Below are positions 23,283 through 63,373 of a stretch of DNA of 64,000 bases, in pieces. Each line of letters opens with the position of its first letter. Position 1 is the first letter of the stretch. The position numbers were made by a program, and so were the translations under genes. The notes under the pieces are model-generated. The model had not been told where the DNA came from. It worked only from the letters and a program-made list of their open reading frames with translations, and searched no databases. Source of the stretch: Escherichia phage HP3; sequence record NC_041919.1; one strand, given 5' to 3'.

Positions 23283-24092
23283 TTAGAAACGAGATGCGAC
23301 TTTCGCATATACACTTACAATATCTTCTGCACCTTGTGCAGATTTATCTTCTACAGCTTCAGTGACGAAATTCAGTCCGGCTGCTTCAGTATCAGGAGTA
23401 TTTATACTCTCAGTAATAGTGCTTTCATCTTTATTAGATTTCTTCACCATTTCTACGATTGCACTCAATTTACTTGAGAATGCATCTGAATAATCCATAC
23501 CTTCGACCAGAGCAGAGACTTTTTCTTTTTGAGACTCAGTCAGATCTTTAGTACTTTCGCTCAATGCCACTTCACGCTGCACATAATTGATATATGCGTC
23601 ACGCTTATTGAGTTCTTCGAACAGACGAGCTGATTCTTCTTTATGTTCTTGCAGTTCTTCTTCCATTTCAGCTACAACATCAACTGATTCTTCTGGAACA
23701 ACAACGTTGTGTTCAACGAAGAGCTCTTTCAATCCACCAAGCATGGATTCAAACAGTTCGGCTTTGATACCTTTATCTACTGCTAATTTATTTTCAGTGA
23801 GCCATTCTTTTGCAAGATGGTCAAGGAATTTAGAAGCTTGCTCAGCGATTTTCTTCTCAGCTTTTTCTTCTGCTTCTTCTTTATTTTTTTCTACTTCTTC
23901 TTCTGCTTTTTCAGCAATTTTAGCGATATGAGATTCAGCTAATTTAACGGCGTGCTGCTTGACGGTAGCTTCGAATACAGTGCCGAAAGTTTCTTTTGCT
24001 TCCGGAGAAATATTAACTGATTCGAAAATACTATCAAGAGCAACGGAAGCATCAATTTTTTGCGCTTCAGCAATCAGTTGTTCTTTAAGCAT
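23283..24092 (-). CDS. 22: prohead core scaffold protein (gp22)
   Basis: 269 aa, same as T4 gp22; highly charged coiled-coil. Confidence 0.9.
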   Translation of the reverse strand: MLKEQLIAEAQKIDASVALDSIFESVNISPEAKETFGTVFEATVKQHAVKLAESHIAKIAEKAEEEVEKNKEEAEEKAEKKIAEQASKFLDHLAKEWLTENKLAVDKGIKAELFESMLGGLKELFVEHNVVVPEESVDVVAEMEEELQEHKEESARLFEELNKRDAYINYVQREVALSESTKDLTESQKEKVSALVEGMDYSDAFSSKLSAIVEMVKKSNKDESTITESINTPDTEAAGLNFVTEAVEDKSAQGAEDIVSVYAKVASRF

Positions 24093-24119: not shown

Positions 24120-24127
24120 TATTTATA
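24120..24127 (-). promoter_or_regulatory. late promoter box upstream of gene 22
   Basis: plus-strand tatttata about 28 nt upstream of the gene 22 start, overlapping the gene 21 stop. Confidence 0.4.
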
Positions 24128-24761
24128 ACGCTTTTTTCATGGCCTCTGCGAGAGCCATATAGGCGTCATCGGCACTTGTATCGGCTTCCGCCGTCTGTGA
24201 TTCGGTAATTTCCTTAGGAGTTACCCATGCATCTGGAGCACTTGGACCCCATACTGCATCAACACCTACAGTTAATTTGAATCCTTCGTTTACGATACGA
24301 TAACCTTTATTTGTGTCAGTCAATGAACCTAATCCACGAGAAGAAACTCCTGGAATCCATCCGGCACGAATATTAGCTGCTAATTTATCTCCAGGACCGT
24401 GGTCACCTTCAATAACACGAGCTCGTCCGTATACGTCATTTCCTTTCCACCACATATCTTCTATAATGATAGCGGCTTGCATCGGGTCAACATTAGCGCG
24501 TGGAGGATGATTTAATTCTCCGAGAGCTTGTTTAGTTAAAACTTGCTCATTAATATAGTCTTTTACCGCTTTTTCTAATATACGTTTTGGATAAAGACGT
24601 TTATTTCTATTGACGACTTCCGCTTGCATGAATATTCCTTCGATGTATAAACCCGGTTTTAAACCTAAGTCTTTTCCATCATGAGATTCAAGCATTGGTA
24701 CGCCATCAATAATTTCGCCAGGTTGACCCCAAGTTTCAATTAGTAATTGGGGTTCATTCAT
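24123..24761 (-). CDS. 21: prohead core protease (gp21)
   Basis: 212 aa, same as T4 gp21; synteny 21-22-23. Confidence 0.9.
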   Translation of the reverse strand: MNEPQLLIETWGQPGEIIDGVPMLESHDGKDLGLKPGLYIEGIFMQAEVVNRNKRLYPKRILEKAVKDYINEQVLTKQALGELNHPPRANVDPMQAAIIIEDMWWKGNDVYGRARVIEGDHGPGDKLAANIRAGWIPGVSSRGLGSLTDTNKGYRIVNEGFKLTVGVDAVWGPSAPDAWVTPKEITESQTAEADTSADDAYMALAEAMKKAL

Positions 24762-53612: not shown

Positions 53613-54297
<685 letters not shown>

Positions 54298-54309
54298 TTT
54301 CACAAAGTT

Positions 54310-54339
54310 GTTTACATACTGATGAGGTAGTGATACTAT
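54310..54339 (+). promoter_or_regulatory. sigma70/T4 early-type promoter (GTTTACA, 17 nt, TACTAT) with -10 inside an inverted repeat
   Basis: gtttaca at 54310-54316 and tactat at 54334-54339; flanked by inverted repeat gatgaggta / tacctcatc. Confidence 0.55.
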
Positions 54340-54370
54340 TACCTCATCAAAATTAATTAGGAAAATAAAA

Positions 54371-54628
54371 ATGAAAACTTTCAAAGAGTTTGCTACAAAA
54401 ACTACTATCACTGAATCTTCCCACGGTATGGAAGTAAAGCTTGGAATGGCTTTAGCTGAAGCTGAGCGTCTTTTCTCTCGTATTAAAGAACTTGCTGCTG
54501 CGGTCGATCCTTCATCTTTTAAAGGAGACCAAACTAAAGTTAAAGCACTTTTAGCATTATGCTCCGATGCAGGAGAAATTGCTAAAAATGGTTCTAAGAT
54601 GAAGAAACGATTAGAAGATTTAAAATAA
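54371..54628 (+). CDS. internal-protein-like gene with N-terminal capsid targeting sequence
   Basis: 85 aa; N-terminus MKTFKEFATKTTITE resembles the T4 IP capsid targeting sequence (MKTYQEFIAE) with a gp21-type L/I-x-E site; RBS aggaaa. Confidence 0.6.
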   Translation: MKTFKEFATKTTITESSHGMEVKLGMALAEAERLFSRIKELAAAVDPSSFKGDQTKVKALLALCSDAGEIAKNGSKMKKRLEDLK

Positions 54629-54640
54629 TTTCACAAAGTT

Positions 54641-54670
54641 GTTTACATAGGGTTTTAGTTGTGATACTAT
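54641..54670 (+). promoter_or_regulatory. sigma70/T4 early-type promoter, second copy of the cassette
   Basis: tcacaaagttgtttacata ... gtgatactatta nearly identical to the copy at 54301; inverted repeat atagggt / accctat around the -10. Confidence 0.55.
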
Positions 54671-54704
54671 TACCCTATCAAAACAAAACCAAATGGAAAT
54701 CAAA

Positions 54705-54938
54705 ATGAAAACTTACCAAGAATTTATTGCTGAAACTGCTGATGTAAAAGTTGAGTTTATTTACATTGGCAAGAAAGATAAAATGGGTGAAATGCCTCAT
54801 GGAGTTCTTCGTGATGCATTAGATAATTTCGGTCAACTCGCCGCAGAAGATTACGGTGATAAAATTGTTGTTACTGGTCCTGCTGCAGTTATTGAAAAAT
54901 GGGCAGCAGAAAATAAATCAATTTTTCGTAAAAAATAA
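54705..54938 (+). CDS. internal-protein-like gene with canonical capsid targeting sequence
   Basis: N-terminus MKTYQEFIAE is identical to the T4 internal protein CTS; the track ORF begins 4 codons upstream (54693); 77 aa. Confidence 0.65.
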   Translation: MKTYQEFIAETADVKVEFIYIGKKDKMGEMPHGVLRDALDNFGQLAAEDYGDKIVVTGPAAVIEKWAAENKSIFRKK

Positions 54939-54968
54939 GTTTACTTTTAGATAGGGTAGTGATACTAT
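54939..54968 (+). promoter_or_regulatory. sigma70/T4 early-type promoter, third copy
   Basis: gtttac ... gtgatactatta with inverted repeat agatagggta / taccctatct. Confidence 0.5.
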
Positions 54969-54996
54969 TACCCTATCTACTACTGAGGAGAATAAA

Positions 54997-55182
54997 ATGA
55001 AACGTTGTGAATTAATTCGAAATGTTGCTATTGCAATTTCTGCTTCCGCTTTTAGTTTTTCAATGTTTGTTGGATTTATATGTGGATTATTGACTACAGC
55101 AGAAAATGTGTTTTCACTTGTAGTAGCATTTTTAATTGGTTTAATTGCTATTGTTATGGATAAAATTTCTAAAGGTGAATAA
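54997..55182 (+). CDS. small hydrophobic membrane protein
   Basis: 61 aa with two hydrophobic helices; RBS gaggag. Confidence 0.5.
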   Translation: MKRCELIRNVAIAISASAFSFSMFVGFICGLLTTAENVFSLVVAFLIGLIAIVMDKISKGE

Positions 55183-55580
55183 TGAACGTTGAATATTATG
55201 TATATGCGGATTACGAAAATAATCCGTCTAAAGATGAAGATAATCGTTTAGGTGTAGATGCTTTCGATTCCCCTGCGGCGGCATGGCAATGGGTTGAAAG
55301 AACCGATATTCCTTACCGTTATATTGAAGTGGTTGACCACGCAGGAAACAAGTATCCTAAGGAAGCATATGTTGCTTCCGGGAAGGTAAATTTCCTTTTG
55401 TTTGCAGGTGATAATTATTATCCCCGTGGTGGGTATACCGATTTAATTGCTAAAGCATTCTCTGAAGATGAACTCCGTGACATTATCAAAGAAAATGAAA
55501 ACAAACCGATGGATTCTAATCGCTTTGATTGGTGGCAAATCGTAAATGCTAATACTCACACTATTGTTGATGAAGGCTGA
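55182..55580 (+). CDS. hypothetical protein
   Basis: 132-aa ORF, ATGA-coupled to the upstream gene. Confidence 0.5.
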   Translation: MNVEYYVYADYENNPSKDEDNRLGVDAFDSPAAAWQWVERTDIPYRYIEVVDHAGNKYPKEAYVASGKVNFLLFAGDNYYPRGGYTDLIAKAFSEDELRDIIKENENKPMDSNRFDWWQIVNANTHTIVDEG

Positions 55581-55582
55581 TA

Positions 55583-55870
55583 ATGATTCTTTATGCGAAA
55601 GTATCATCCATTGAAAATGGATATAAATATGATCAAGACGCGGCTAAAGCTTTGATTGATGATTATGGCATTTTAACATGTTTTGAAGTTGAAAAGGTTT
55701 ACATTGACCGTTCATCTTCTCAAGTTAAATTAGTGAAGGAAGAACGTAAATTTAATACAGTAAATTTTGATTTCTTTATTGAAACAGAAAAAGGTCCTCT
55801 TGAATATGATATTTTCAAGAATCCTTTGGGTCTTGAATGCATCGTAAATATGTATTATTATAAATGGTAA
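55583..55870 (+). CDS. hypothetical protein
   Basis: 95-aa ORF. Confidence 0.45.
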   Translation: MILYAKVSSIENGYKYDQDAAKALIDDYGILTCFEVEKVYIDRSSSQVKLVKEERKFNTVNFDFFIETEKGPLEYDIFKNPLGLECIVNMYYYKW

Positions 55871-55967
55871 ATATGCTTTAAGAATTATTTGTTATTATTA
55901 ACTCATATCGCACTGATTAATACCCTCTATCATCAAGGGTTCTTGCTTAAGAGCCTTTGTTAATAAT

Positions 55968-56040
55968 TGGGAATTAGCCAAGTTGGTAAGGCACTGGATT
56001 TTGATTCCAGGATGCAAAGGTTCGAGTCCTTTATTCCCAG
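55968..56040 (+). tRNA. tRNA-Gln (anticodon TTG)
   Basis: cloverleaf read by eye: acceptor tgggaat/attccca, anticodon loop ttTTGat, T-loop ttcgagt. Confidence 0.8.
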
Positions 56041-56041
56041 C

Positions 56042-56128
56042 GCGAGAATGGCCAAATTGGTAAAGGCACAGCACTTAAAATGCTGCGGAATGATTTCCTT
56101 GTGGGTTCGAGTCCCACTTCTCGCACCA
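56042..56128 (+). tRNA. tRNA-Leu (anticodon TAA), long variable arm
   Basis: acceptor gcgagaa/ttctcgc, anticodon loop ctTAAaa, T-arm tgggttcgagtccca, encoded CCA. Confidence 0.8.
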
Positions 56129-56133
56129 AATTT

Positions 56134-56207
<74 letters not shown>

Positions 56208-56217
56208 ATTTAATTTA

Positions 56218-56291
56218 CTCCGTGTAGCTCAGTTTGGTAGAGCGTCTGCTTTGGGAGCAGAATGTCGTAGGTTCAAATCCTGCCACGGAGA
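56218..56291 (+). tRNA. tRNA-Pro (anticodon TGG)
   Basis: acceptor ctccgtg/cacggag, anticodon stem tctgc/gcaga with loop ttTGGga, T-loop ttcaaat. Confidence 0.8.
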
Positions 56292-56293
56292 CT

Positions 56294-56383
56294 GGAGGCG
56301 TGGCAGAGTGGTTTAATGCACCGGTCTTGAAAACCGGCAGTCGCTCCGGCGACTCATAGGTTCAAATCCTATCGCCTCCGCCA
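56294..56383 (+). tRNA. tRNA-Ser (anticodon TGA), long variable arm
   Basis: acceptor ggaggcg/cgcctcc, anticodon stem ccggt/accgg with loop ctTGAaa, encoded CCA. Confidence 0.8.
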
Positions 56384-56388
56384 GTTTT

Positions 56389-56464
56389 GCTGATTTAGCT
56401 CAGTAGGTAGAGCAACTCACTTGTAATGAGAAGGTCGGCGGTTCGATTCCGTCAATCAGCACCA
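56389..56464 (+). tRNA. tRNA-Thr (anticodon TGT)
   Basis: acceptor gctgatt/aatcagc, anticodon loop ctTGTaa, T-arm ggcggttcgattccgtc, encoded CCA. Confidence 0.8.
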
Positions 56465-56465
56465 A

Positions 56466-56540
56466 GGCCCTGTAGCTGGAAGGTTCAAGCAAGCGACTCA
56501 TAATCGCCAGATGGTGGTTCAATTCCACCCAGGGCCACCA
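56466..56540 (+). tRNA. tRNA-Ile (anticodon CAT, presumably lysidine-modified as in T4; formally Met-like)
   Basis: acceptor ggccctg/cagggcc, anticodon loop ctCATaa, T-loop ttcaatt, encoded CCA. Confidence 0.7.
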
Positions 56541-56549
56541 AATTAATTT

Positions 56550-56636
56550 GGGGAGTTATCCCGTAGAGGTAGCGGTGTGGACTGTAAATTCATTGTCATT
56601 GCGACTCGGGTGGTTCGACTCCACCACTCCCCACCA
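56550..56636 (+). tRNA. tRNA-Tyr (anticodon GTA), long variable arm
   Basis: acceptor ggggagt/actcccc, anticodon stem gtgga/ttcat (two G-U pairs) with loop ctGTAaa, T-arm gggtggttcgactccacc, encoded CCA. Confidence 0.65.
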
Positions 56637-56640
56637 ATTT

Positions 56641-56715
56641 GGATGTGTAGCTCAATGGCAGAGCGATCGCCTGTTAAGCGATTGGTTATAGGTTCGAATC
56701 CTATCACGTCCGCCA
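56641..56715 (+). tRNA. tRNA-Asn (anticodon GTT)
   Basis: acceptor ggatgtg/cacgtcc, anticodon stem atcgc/gcgat with loop ctGTTaa, T-arm ataggttcgaatcctat, encoded CCA. Confidence 0.75.
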
Positions 56716-56829
56716 AATTTGTGACAACTGTCACATTAATATCTACTTGACGCGATTATAGGGGTTGAACTGATCACTCTTCTCTTAATTTCGTGTGAAG
56801 ACATCTTGATTGTTGGAGTAGGTATTAAT

Positions 56830-56905
56830 GTGGCCGTAGTTCAGTTGGTAGAACTCGAGATTGTGATTCTCGTAGTCATGGGTTCGACTCCCATCGGTCA
56901 CCCCA
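56830..56905 (+). tRNA. tRNA-His (anticodon GTG)
   Basis: acceptor gtggccg/cggtcac, D-arm gttcagttggtagaac, anticodon stem cgaga/tctcg with loop ttGTGat, T-arm atgggttcgactcccat, encoded CCA. Confidence 0.75.
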
Positions 56906-56909
56906 ATTA

Positions 56910-56985
56910 CGGGGCATAGCTCAGAAGGAAGAGCAAGGACCTTCTAAGTCCTAGGTCGTAGGTTCGATCCCTACTGCCTCGACCA
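56910..56985 (+). tRNA. tRNA-Arg (anticodon TCT)
   Basis: acceptor cggggca/tgcctcg, anticodon stem aggac/gtcct with loop ctTCTaa, T-arm gtaggttcgatccctac, encoded CCA. Confidence 0.8.
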
Positions 56986-57003
56986 ATTATAAGTGAGGAA
57001 AAT

Positions 57004-57354
57004 ATGAAAGGTAATGTTTATTTAGTAGTTCATGATTTAACATTCTATTTTAATCATAATGATACTGTTATTTCTGAACGTGTAATTAATTTGCTTTATC
57101 AGCATGCAGATTATGTTTATGTCGAAAACGAATATGGTCATTGGCAATTTCTCAAAAATCGTTCATTTGGTTTAGATGGTTACAAATATTTTGATCGTAA
57201 AGACCTTTTAGATACAATTCCGTTATCTACACAATATCAAAATCATAAGTCTTTACATAAATGCCGGCTAATTCGAAATGCTGAATCCGCGTATGAAGCA
57301 ATTGATTTGTGGCGTAAACGCCGTGAATATATTGATTCTTTAAAAGAATATTAA
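57004..57354 (+). CDS. hypothetical protein
   Basis: 116-aa ORF starting 19 nt after tRNA-Arg with RBS gaggaaaat. Confidence 0.5.
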   Translation: MKGNVYLVVHDLTFYFNHNDTVISERVINLLYQHADYVYVENEYGHWQFLKNRSFGLDGYKYFDRKDLLDTIPLSTQYQNHKSLHKCRLIRNAESAYEAIDLWRKRREYIDSLKEY

Positions 57355-57518
57355 GAAACCGGGTCGCTACCGGTAAGTCGTCGGACTGATGTTCCCTGGA
57401 GTATAGTTTCCTCCCACAGTTTTACTGTGTTCTGGCTCTTTACTATCACAGCAGAAACGGCGCACCGAATTATCGATTCGAGGAAATATCTTTGCCGTAA
57501 GCCGAGTAGCGTTTTTGA

Positions 57519-57612
57519 CGGAACGTTCGGATATGGTCGAGATATGGCCTTTTAAAAATATTGAGTAGCGTCAACTACTTAATAACCGGGTTCGAATCCC
57601 GGCGTTTCGTAC
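57519..57612 (+). ncRNA. candidate tRNA-like element or pseudo-tRNA (not foldable by eye into a full cloverleaf)
   Basis: canonical T-arm ccgggttcgaatcccgg at 57586-57602; possible acceptor pairing cggaacg (57519-57525) with cgtttcg (57603-57609); lies in a 380-nt segment with no ORF of 60 aa or more. Confidence 0.3.
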
Positions 57613-57662
57613 AAACACTTGCCTTAGCAGGTGGAACCCCGACAAGGTTGCCGCAAGGCTTA

Positions 57663-57689
57663 GCCCCGACCGAAAGGTTGGGGCTTTTT
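57663..57689 (+). terminator. intrinsic terminator gccccgaccgaaaggttggggc plus T5 (copy 1)
   Basis: 9-bp GC-rich stem, GAAA loop, then ttttt. Confidence 0.65.
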
Positions 57690-57691
57690 GG

Positions 57692-57699
57692 TATAAATA
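57692..57699 (+). promoter_or_regulatory. late promoter box TATAAATA
   Basis: exact TATAAATA 38 nt upstream of the ATG at 57738. Confidence 0.5.
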
Positions 57700-57737
57700 T
57701 TAGTATATTAAATCTACAAATTAAAATAGGAAATAAG

Positions 57738-58211
57738 ATGAAATCATATACTCAATTTTTAAATGAAGCGGTGTTAAATGAAGCATCTAGCACCGAAATT
57801 CAAGCTGTTGCAAAAGCTGCCATTGCCGCGGGTAAATATTCCTATAAAGATGCTTCTGATGAATCGCGATTCCAGTTTGCACGCGACATGAAAGCGGAAG
57901 GATTTACGGGAAATGCAGTTAGTATGGCCTGGAAAAGTTTAGTTGCTACTGGCGCTGCTTTTGCAAAGGCTTCGGGTAAACCTGCTCCTAAAGCAGATCC
58001 TAAAGCGGCACAAGAAAAAAATATCGTTAAAGGAATTATCGCTAAATATGAAGCTATCCTTAAAGAGCTTTTAGTAATCAAAACCGAAGGCCAAAAGTTA
58101 GCCCGTGCTTATAGTTTCAAAGATAATCCACATGTTCACTCTCTTGAGTATGTTGAAGACATCCAAAAAATTATTAAAGACCGCATTTGGTCTGCTAAAC
58201 AAATCAAATGA
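57738..58211 (+). CDS. internal-protein-like gene with capsid targeting sequence
   Basis: 157 aa from the ATG at 57738 (RBS tagga); N-terminus MKSYTQFLNEA resembles the IP CTS; the track ORF (57561) is an unsupported N-terminal extension across the terminator and promoter. Confidence 0.6.
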   Translation: MKSYTQFLNEAVLNEASSTEIQAVAKAAIAAGKYSYKDASDESRFQFARDMKAEGFTGNAVSMAWKSLVATGAAFAKASGKPAPKADPKAAQEKNIVKGIIAKYEAILKELLVIKTEGQKLARAYSFKDNPHVHSLEYVEDIQKIIKDRIWSAKQIK

Positions 58212-58218
58212 CATTCTT

Positions 58219-58245
58219 AGCCCCGACCGAAAGGTTGGGGCTTTT
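58219..58245 (+). terminator. intrinsic terminator, identical second copy of the 57663 hairpin
   Basis: cttagccccgaccgaaaggttggggcttttt repeated exactly, directly after the stop at 58211. Confidence 0.65.
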
Positions 58246-58336
58246 TAGTTTGAATCACTCGGATAACGCTGTTACGGATAGTAACAAAGTAATAAATAAT
58301 TAATAACCAACCGATAAATTATTTCAAGGATTTTAA

Positions 58337-58900
58337 ATGAAAACCTATGCCGAATTTTTAACCGAAGCAGCAAAATTACCATCTGAAGCAGATCTTACTA
58401 AAGTATTCTTCCAATTGGACCCAAAAGACCGCGGCGATTTTCTTAAGTGGAAAGCTAAAGCTATTGAAATGTACAACATCGATAATAGTTCTTTTACAAT
58501 GAGTCAAGAAAATAAATTCAATAAAGCATTTTTCAAAATTTCTAAGAAATTGGCATCTGGCGCTCAGGTTCCTAAATCTGTGTTAGCTACTCCTGAACGC
58601 GCACCTGTTAAAATTTCTAAGAATATGTTCGACACTAAAAAATACGTTAATGCTTTGAATAAAGCTCTTGATGCATTGGATGATGCAAAGAAGGCAGCCC
58701 GCGATCTTCAAGACGTGTACACCGATTTTGACCGCAAAACTAAAGGTTCTATTTCAAATAGCGAACGCAATAGTGTAAGTGTTTATTCTGATAGCCTTGA
58801 TGTTCTTGGCGATGCGTATACTGAAATTAAAAATCGTATTAACACTGCATCTAAGCTAAAAGCTGCTGCAGAAGCTATAATAAGTAAACTAGGTAAATAA
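58337..58900 (+). CDS. internal-protein-like gene with capsid targeting sequence (IPIII-sized)
   Basis: 187 aa; N-terminus MKTYAEFLTEAAK matches the CTS pattern MKTY-EF-xxE; RBS aagga. Confidence 0.6.
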   Translation: MKTYAEFLTEAAKLPSEADLTKVFFQLDPKDRGDFLKWKAKAIEMYNIDNSSFTMSQENKFNKAFFKISKKLASGAQVPKSVLATPERAPVKISKNMFDTKKYVNALNKALDALDDAKKAARDLQDVYTDFDRKTKGSISNSERNSVSVYSDSLDVLGDAYTEIKNRINTASKLKAAAEAIISKLGK

Positions 58901-58908
58901 TTTTAAAT

Positions 58909-58933
58909 CCCTATCTAAATGATAGGGCTTTTT
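58909..58933 (+). terminator. hairpin ccctatctaaatgataggg plus T5
   Basis: inverted repeat followed by cttttt directly after the stop at 58900. Confidence 0.5.
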
Positions 58934-59056
58934 GGTATCTAGGCCTTTCTGGACCTCTCTAGGCATCATTTAGTTTATACCCTTTATAATATATTATCCT
59001 ATCCTTTAATTGCCCATCCCTGCCCTAGAATTCCCTAAAAATTTTTTCACAAAACT

Positions 59057-59086
59057 GTTTACATCTCTGTTCTTCCATGGTACTAT
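59057..59086 (+). promoter_or_regulatory. sigma70/T4 early-type promoter (GTTTACA, 17 nt, TGGTACTAT)
   Basis: tcacaaaactgtttacat ... ggtactatac, same cassette family as 54310 and 54641. Confidence 0.5.
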
Positions 59087-59129
59087 ACAACTATCAACTA
59101 CTGATACAGAAAACAACTTGGAGAATGAA

Positions 59130-62366: not shown

Positions 62367-62897
<531 letters not shown>

Positions 62898-62901
62898 AGT
62901 T

Positions 62902-62931
62902 GTTTACTTTCTCCTAGAATTGTGATAGTAT
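62902..62931 (+). promoter_or_regulatory. sigma70/T4 early-type promoter upstream of denV
   Basis: aagttgtttac, 18 nt, tagtat, with inverted repeat tgtga / tcaca flanking the -10. Confidence 0.45.
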
Positions 62932-62956
62932 ATTCACAGTTACTTGGAGGGATAAA

Positions 62957-63373
62957 ATGACTCGTATTAATTTGACTTTAGTATCTGAACTTGCTGATCA
63001 ACATTTAATCGCAGAATACCGTGAATTGCCGCGTGTTTTTGGTATAGTTCGTAAGCATGTGGCAAACGGTAAGCGCGTTAAAGATTTTAAAATATCTTCT
63101 AAATTTATTTTAGGTTCTGGTCATGTTACTTTCTTTTACGATAAGTTAGAATTTTTGCGAAAGCGTCAATCGGACATTATAACGGAATGCTTAAAACGCG
63201 GGTTCAGTATAAAAGATACTGAAGTTCCTGACATCAGCGATATTCCAGTAGAATGGAAAAATGATTATAATCCATGCAAATCAGCTATTAAGTTGAGTCA
63301 ACAACGACTCGATGAAAAAATTTTAATGAAGCCACACTGGTATAAGTATTACGGCAAAAATATTTACATTTAA
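62957..63373 (+). CDS. denV: endonuclease V (pyrimidine dimer DNA glycosylase)
   Basis: 138 aa, same as T4 endo V; N-terminus [29 protein letters not shown] matches recollection. Confidence 0.92.

Follow-up and report, generated by a model that had tools for sequence, protein, structure and literature searches.

We analysed four small genes in a window of 64,000 nucleotides, the whole stretch taken from Escherichia phage HP3 (NC_041919.1), whose products begin like the internal proteins (IPs) of phage T4. Across positions 53800-59100 the window matches Escherichia phage HP3.1 (Tequatrovirus) at 100% identity and many relatives at more than 99.5%, and on this comparison we assign its phage to the T4-like Tequatrovirus. 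The order of genes on the + strand is that of T4 in reverse: 4, 2, 3, 1, 57A and 57B are followed by two small genes starting at 54371 and 54705, then by trna.4/.3/.2, the tRNA cluster, rnaD/rnaC, two genes starting at 57738 and 58337, and e.8, e.6, e.5 and, further on, nudE, e and denV. The products of all four genes are most likely internal head proteins of the T4 type, which would likely neutralise a first-line host defence. The first two are the known genes ip5 and ip6, whereas the new content consists of two unannotated candidate internal proteins, here called candidate A (57738) and candidate B (58337), and of a candidate third IP locus.

None of the three T4 genes ipI, ipII and ipIII is present in the phage of the window. 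The 57B-trna.4 locus, which carries ipI in T4 and Ip5-Ip9-Ip7 in RB32, is occupied here by ip5 and ip6. The second classic locus, between e and denV, is where ipII and ipIII lie in T4 and where ip4 lies in RB32 and PST; in the window it is empty, with e at 62403-62897, 59 bp of spacer (62898-62956) and denV at 62957-63373. The window also encodes the prohead protease gp21, the major scaffold and core protein gp22 (Table 1) and gp68, the last of these at 100% identity to T4. Since all three are near-identical to their T4 counterparts, the T4 rules for the capsid targeting sequence (CTS) are expected to carry over to this phage.

N-terminal capsid targeting sequences

The original prediction held that the four open reading frames (ORFs) start with a T4-type CTS and carry the L/I-x-E context in which gp21 cleaves, and both statements are borne out in the window. 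All four lie on the + strand, and among ORFs of at least 40 amino acids (aa) on both strands of the 64 kb they are the only ones to match the regular expression ^MK[ST][YF].{1,2}F. We also scored residues 2-11 of the 560 Met-started ORFs in the window with BLOSUM62 against CTS references from other phages only (T4 IPI, T4 IPII/III and RB32 Ip4, Ip7 and Ip9). The four genes took ranks 1-4 of 560, with candidate B second and candidate A fourth; their scores were 28-38 (z 4.7-6.1) and the next ORF scored 17. Moreover, a Shine-Dalgarno-like sequence can be read 5′ of each of the four starts.

Targeting by the T4 CTS is reported to depend on an aromatic residue at position 4 and Phe at position 7, and processing by gp21 on L/I at position 8 and Glu at position 10 (Mullaney and Black 1996, via PMC9026906). 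All of these are kept in the four ORFs. Positions 4 and 7 are F/F in Ip5 and Y/F in Ip6 and in both candidates, so that the aromatic residue and the Phe are retained throughout. The gp21 motif reads IAE, ending at residue 10, in Ip6, LTE (10) in candidate B and LNE (10, and again 15) in candidate A, and it is displaced to ITE at residues 13-15 in Ip5, as in T4 IPI. These features together make the CTS reading of the four N-termini well supported.

Cleavage of the candidates is predicted to expose a mature N-terminus at Ala-11, which would read AVLNEASSTEIQ in candidate A and AAKLPSEADLTK in candidate B; use of the second LNE of candidate A would give SSTEIQ instead. The predicted mature forms are 70 aa for Ip5 (isoelectric point, pI, 9.2; about 7.5 kDa), 67 aa for Ip6 (pI 6.5; about 7.4 kDa), 147 aa for candidate A (pI 9.5; about 16 kDa) and 177 aa for candidate B (pI 9.5; about 19.6 kDa), three of the four being basic. 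The two candidates in their mature form are similar to T4 IPs in size and pI, and in both size and charge the mature candidate B comes near to T4 IPIII* (183 aa, pI 9.65).

The known pair ip5 and ip6

The product of the gene at 54371 is 100% identical to Ip5 of RB15 (Z35082.1, a 1994 deposit) and of RB32 and matches phrog_3499, 'internal head protein', with an E value of 1e-49; from these matches we identify it as the Ip5 precursor, with an IPI-type long CTS. Its neighbour at 54705 is 98.7% identical to annotated ip6/ipVI genes and 97.4% to that of T6, and it matches phrog_8111, 'internal virion protein' (E 3e-52), which identifies its product by homology as the Ip6 precursor. The Ip6 CTS, MKTYQEFIAE, is identical to the propeptide of T4 IPII/IPIII.

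Both genes have the early-promoter/stem-loop flanks of the classic 57B-trna.4 locus. Each cassette has the layout GTTTACA, 17 nt, TGATACTAT, with a stem-loop that spans the -10 region, and the promoter-like site of the first copy (54311-54339) carries a TG extension. Elements of the same type stand 5′ of T4 ipIII and ipII, and such early-promoter/stem-loop elements have been discussed as the shuffling element of IP loci (PMC2839356).

Several observations concern the alleles and starts of this pair. An upstream in-frame ATG at 54693 (MEIK-MKTY..., 81 aa) is used for ip6 in some deposits, e.g. HP3; of the two starts, 54705 is more likely, because 54693 is without a Shine-Dalgarno sequence and would bury the CTS four residues in. 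Ip6 of the window has Ile at position 21, an allele present in only two phage records at an identity of at least 99%, while the other relatives have Thr-21. We considered whether Ile-21 was acquired during the directed evolution of HP3.1 and rejected this, since the allele is already in the HP3 protein entry and is hence an allele of the lineage. Furthermore, in 228 phage records the best Ip5 match is below 60% identity (47.6% in most of the sampled ones) and adjoins gene e, as does RB69ORF127c. These matches beside the lysozyme gene e indicate that the Ip5 family is present in both classic IP loci.

The insertion between rnaC and e.8

Directly 3′ of the rnaC terminator lies a segment of about 1.25 kb that is not in T4; T4-like sequence resumes at 58930, where it matches the rnaC-e.8 spacer. 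This insertion holds candidates A and B. Both are preceded by a terminator of the rnaC type and by a promoter-like octamer that ends 39 nt 5′ of the ATG, and a third terminator copy, which ends in GGGCTTTTTGGTAT, closes the insertion (Table 1).

The site differs among relatives. In T4, T6 and PST it is empty and contains a single copy of the repeat, RB32 and RB51 have the first gene only, and RB14 and the phage of the window have both. The annotators of RB32, who named Ip4, Ip5, Ip7 and Ip9 in that phage, described the homologue of candidate A as 'flanked by 34 bp imperfect direct repeat'. Recombination between the repeated regulatory elements can account for the gain and loss of genes at this site. 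At the three loci examined, T6 appears to carry no IPs other than Ip5 and Ip6. We read the rnaC-e.8 insertion as a third IP locus. A mechanically called ORF at 57561-58211 with a TTG start was rejected as a gene, as it crosses the rnaC RNA gene together with the terminator and is an artefact of ORF calling.

Table 1. Features of the four genes, their flanks and the head assembly genes, in positions of the 64,000-nucleotide window; a slash marks the predicted gp21 cleavage site.
Feature	Position	Strand	Remarks
ORF, ip5	54371-54628	+	85 aa; N-terminus MKTFKEFATKTTITE/S
ORF, ip6	54705-54938	+	77 aa; N-terminus MKTYQEFIAE/T
ORF, candidate A	57738-58211	+	157 aa; N-terminus MKSYTQFLNE/A, second site VLNE/A
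ORF, candidate B	58337-58900	+	187 aa; N-terminus MKTYAEFLTE/A
Early-promoter/stem-loop cassette 1, 5′ of ip5	54282-54352	+	Reference copy of repeat family D2
Early-promoter/stem-loop cassette 2, 5′ of ip6	54613-54683	+	D2 copy, 86% identical to cassette 1; promoter-like site 54642-54670
Early-promoter/stem-loop cassette 3, closing the ip5-ip6 locus, 5′ of trna.4	54911-54981	+	D2 copy 3
trna.4	54997-55182		100% identical to T4
rnaD and rnaC homologues, left boundary of the insertion	57355-57690	+	Near-identical alignment to T4
rnaC terminator	57662-57690	+	Hairpin 57662-57685, then T-run
T4-type late promoter TATAAATA	57692-57699	+	Exact match; 39 nt before the ATG at 57738; putative promoter
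Terminator copy 2, rnaC type, between candidates A and B	58219-58247	+	Copy of repeat D4, 93% over 40 nt to 57659-57698
Near-consensus late promoter AATAAATA	58291-58298	+	7/8 match, read from sequence; putative promoter
Terminator 3 ending in GGGCTTTTTGGTAT, right boundary of the insertion	58903-58942	+	D4 copy 3; terminator-like site 58909-58927
Gene 22, major scaffold/core protein, expected CTS docking partner	23286-24092	-	tblastn with T4 gp22: 98.1%, 269 aa
Gene 21, prohead protease, expected to remove the CTS	24126-24761	-	tblastn with T4 gp21: 99.5%, 212 aa

Candidates A and B and their relatives in other genera

The product of candidate gene A corresponds to RB32ORF133c and that of B to RB14ORF136. 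They were found in 510 and 163 phage records, respectively, and all deposits and cluster members inspected label them 'hypothetical' or 'uncharacterized'. Neither is named as an Ip in these deposits, a comparison that did not extend to the variant list of Comeau et al. 2007, in which more than 30 IP variants were reportedly counted. Full-length matches to phrog_2280 were obtained with both (E 2.3e-60 for A and 2e-53 for B); this group has no functional label, and neither the CTS nor the late promoter nor the locus context appears in its annotation. The family is small, with 15 cluster representatives among 1.84 billion proteins in an exhaustive HMMER search, and word-indexed homologue searches returned close relatives only. 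One source gives candidate B the name 'isopenicillin N synthase-like dioxygenase', which is without Pfam or NCBIfam support and looks spurious.

Candidates A and B have a common layout: the CTS is followed by a helical N-domain of about 60 residues, a disordered Pro/Lys/Ala linker and a long helical hairpin. AlphaFold2 models of the two have a mean predicted local distance difference test (pLDDT) score of 72 and 61, respectively. On the basis of the shared PHROG, the common architecture and a bridging pair in Yersinia phage fHe-Yen9-01, they are probably distant, diverged paralogs of the phrog_2280 family.

Comparison with other genera reveals where these proteins are conserved. With an overall identity of only 16-40%, family members still retain [YF]xxFLxE[AG] at their very N-terminus. 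In pairwise comparisons the motif averages 54% identity and the entire alignment 30%, and a Glu-Ala/Gly junction follows the motif in nearly every member. In fHe-Yen9-01 (Tegunavirus) one gene of each type, A-like and B-like, form an adjacent pair. Here gp154 is collinear with candidate B at 24% identity, and both paralogs share the lineage-specific variant ML.Y.EFLKE. The N-domain of candidate A shares 53% identity with a protein of a Klebsiella Jiaodavirus, encoded just 3′ of the tRNA genes. Furthermore, in Klebsiella phage KP1 and in fHe-Yen9-01 an exact TATAAATA comes after a terminator and lies 30-36 nt 5′ of the ATG, so that this arrangement, at a distance of 30-39 nt, occurs in three genera. 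The position after the tRNA cluster is likewise syntenic in Tequatrovirus, Tegunavirus and Jiaodavirus. Late expression, as the conserved TATAAATA promoter suggests, would fit a component of the prohead.

These comparisons modify the initial view of the four genes in part. That their loci vary between T4-like phages agrees with the comparison of T4, T6, PST and RB32. The mature parts had been thought to show no resemblance to each other, which is true of Ip5 and Ip6 but not of candidates A and B, both members of phrog_2280 with the same architecture. Similarly, 'undescribed' does not apply to Ip5 and Ip6, whereas A and B, unannotated in the deposits inspected, are plausibly new as internal-protein candidates. 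Structure prediction, which had been proposed as a check, yielded models for both candidates; the model of candidate A found no fold match in the PDB with Foldseek.

Discussion

By analogy with T4, we infer that the products of the four genes are packaged, cleaved, ejected and active against host defence. During prohead assembly, the N-terminal 10-15 residues would dock the precursor on the gp22 scaffolding core, and gp21 would then cut after the glutamate of L/I-x-E, at E15 in Ip5 and at E10 in Ip6 and candidates A and B, so that a small mature protein would be set free inside the head. At infection this protein would exit with the DNA and, in the cell, most likely counteract a first-line host defence; as with T4 Ip1, Ip2 and Ip3, its target would be a modification-dependent restriction enzyme (type IV, GmrSD-like). 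In the case of IPIII, the plating loss of the mutant on particular wild strains is rescued by the CTS-less protein expressed in the host. IPIII is also required for infection of ECOR17 (PMC9391042), and each of T4 Ip1, Ip2 and Ip3 inhibits a distinct GmrSD enzyme (PMC12373910). That the diverse internal proteins of T-even phages with their common CTS are injected anti-restriction factors is a long-established view (PMC3012670, also PMC12373910).

The likeness to the T4 proteins IPI, IPII and IPIII extends from the identical CTS of Ip6 through the IPI-type MKTFKEF...ITE of Ip5 to the close variants in candidates A and B. It also includes the L/I-x-E site for gp21, the small size, mature parts that are basic in all but Ip6, near-identical gp21 and gp22, and a position within the hyperplastic region that surrounds the tRNA genes. 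For the T4 proteins, GmrSD variants are known as targets. Among the Ip4-Ip10 proteins of T-even phages (Repoila et al. 1994; annotations of RB15, RB32, T2, T6, K3 and PST), 54371 equals Ip5 and 54705 equals Ip6 in the same locus and with the same flanks. Candidates A and B, on the other hand, match none of the three sequences Ip4, Ip7 and Ip9. The insertion resembles the early-promoter/stem-loop (PeSL) shuffling cassettes of IP loci (Arbiol et al. 2010; Comeau et al. 2014) in having short, repeated regulatory elements on either side of its genes; unlike in these cassettes, the repeats at the rnaC-e.8 site consist of intrinsic terminators with a late promoter after them and not of early-promoter stem-loops.

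A number of results weigh against the interpretation of the four products as injected anti-defence proteins. Some of them concern the N-termini and the expression signals. The residue at P1′ is Ala in candidates A and B but Ser in Ip5 and Thr in Ip6, unlike the T4 IPs with Ala only, which makes the Ip5 and Ip6 cleavage sites slightly less certain. In candidate A the residues Ser-3, Gln-6 and Leu-8 differ from the classic CTS, and in candidate B Ala-5 and Leu-8 do. Both lie outside the two recognised IP loci, 57B-trna.4 and e-denV, with terminator and late-promoter flanks in place of the early-promoter cassettes typical of ip genes, and the promoter 5′ of candidate B agrees with the consensus at just seven of eight positions. 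Locus and flanks of this kind are, however, a trait of the known members and do not define the mechanism. The direct evidence for homology between candidates A and B is weak (BLASTP E 0.05; hhalign, with two shallow profiles, 37% probability over the C-terminal 24 residues). The similarity of the four ORFs to T4 IPI*, IPII and IPIII in BLASTP is confined to the CTS.

Other results of this kind bear on packaging and activity. In the literature searched we found neither virion proteomics nor an N-terminal sequence for any of the four products; the paper on the fPS phages contains no virion proteomics, and the ORF names did not occur in that literature. The virion proteome of phiR1-RT was considered as evidence and rejected, because the stretch of its record that we inspected has no such gene pair. 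Scans of the four proteins against Pfam, NCBIfam and PADLOC gave nothing above noise and no enzymatic domain, and a PDB sequence search with Ip5 and Ip6 gave no match. For the AlphaFold2 model of candidate A, the best Foldseek hit in the PDB had an E value of 0.9 and a TM score of at most 0.28, and a search of BFVD returned only its own family. With no match in family, sequence or fold, nothing points to a mechanism. Finally, ip4-10 showed no reproducible inhibition of 15 GmrSD groups (PMC12373910). By its naming this set should include Ip5 and Ip6, while candidates A and B are apparently outside it. The negative results are weak, since only eight active GmrSD systems were tested from a very diverse family.

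Among the alternatives, injected effectors with a target other than GmrSD, either another immediate defence or a host takeover process, are conceivable, though we regard them as somewhat unlikely. The outcome for ip4-10, among which Ip5 and Ip6 presumably were, would be in line with such a target, and so would the presence of phrog_2280 members in Tegunavirus and Jiaodavirus as well; moreover, T4 delivers Alt from its head as well, an ADP-ribosyltransferase whose substrate is the RNA polymerase of the host (PMC9026906). However, every small T4 IP of known target acts on a GmrSD enzyme, the ip4-10 negatives come from eight active systems only, and none of the four proteins has a detectable enzymatic domain.

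It is unlikely, in our view, that the four proteins are packaged and processed but have a mainly physical role, as basic, DNA-associated counter-ions or spacers for genome condensation or ejection whose diversity reflects weak constraint. A pI of 9.2-9.5 in three of the four mature forms would suit this role, but Ip6, with its pI of 6.5, is not basic. The Lys/Pro/Ala-rich linker of phrog_2280 (KPAPKADPKAA, AKPKAAKK, KAPVKAPVK) gives an impression of likeness to DNA-binding tails, whereas the conservation of the N-domain of candidate A, 53% against Klebsiella phage proteins, argues for a specific fold and partner. The lack of reproducible anti-GmrSD activity of ip4-10 and the apparent sufficiency of Ip5 and Ip6 for T6, at the three loci examined, are compatible with a physical role as well; yet all three T4 IPs have specific, non-overlapping anti-restriction targets, and phages differ in their repertoire, as host-range factors would be expected to.

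Quite improbable is the explanation that candidates A and B are late proteins not packaged by way of a CTS, their N-terminus being a relic of recombination at ip 5′ ends or the result of selection on translation initiation: the two lie outside the loci described as the only sites of IP genes, the Karam-lab annotators of RB32 named other Ips and left RB32ORF133c a plain hypothetical, recombination could explain the 74-77% DNA similarity that the genes show around their start codons (D7, D8), and the N-termini are off the classic CTS at several positions, but as an amino-acid sequence the motif has persisted in three genera, with the remainder down to 16-40% identity, the copies differ by synonymous codons (TAT/TAC, GAA/GAG, ACC/ACT), the residues kept are exactly those reported for targeting and cleavage, the Glu-Ala/Gly junction is found in nearly every member, and the late promoter is conserved.

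We therefore prefer the interpretation of all four products as T4-type internal head proteins directed against a first-line defence. A more far-reaching version of it, which we put forward tentatively and which may well not hold in full, is that the rnaC-e.8 site is a third, unrecognised IP locus of the Tevenvirinae. It would be home to a two-domain, CTS-tagged and late-expressed phrog_2280 family, present in about 500 phages of Tequatrovirus, Tegunavirus and Jiaodavirus, whose members would be injected and disarm defences outside the coverage of Ip1-10. If true, this would contradict the published confinement of IP genes to two loci. Candidates A and B would add one widespread candidate family and widen the search for ip genes beyond the two loci that screens have focused on. 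Injected internal proteins precede all phage gene expression and can thus set the host range against restriction-type defences. The HP3 lineage infects clinical E. coli without the three IPs of T4, and its injected repertoire matters for the prediction and engineering of host range.

Further features of the region

The tRNA cluster at 55968-56985 comprises 11 tRNAs, compared with 8 in T4, and segB is absent. One of them, tRNA-Tyr at 56550-56636, is called by ARAGORN, is absent from the Rfam matches at the gathering threshold and carries a pseudo-tRNA flag in the HP3.1 record. A 'tRNA-Met' with the anticodon CAT occupies the place of the CAU-anticodon tRNA that is annotated as Ile in T4 and RB32. 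The spacer of 114 nt between tRNA-Asn and tRNA-His (56716-56829) is the site of an inverted repeat (56724-56747/56817-56840) with 83% complementarity. Between tRNA-Arg and rnaD there is an ORF of 116 aa (57004-57354, phrog_3355), at a place where T4 has no gene. Finally, a fourth copy of the early-promoter cassette is located at 59038-59086 (TTTCACAAAACTGTTTACAT ... TACTAT), upstream of e.8, and the same sequence is found in T4.

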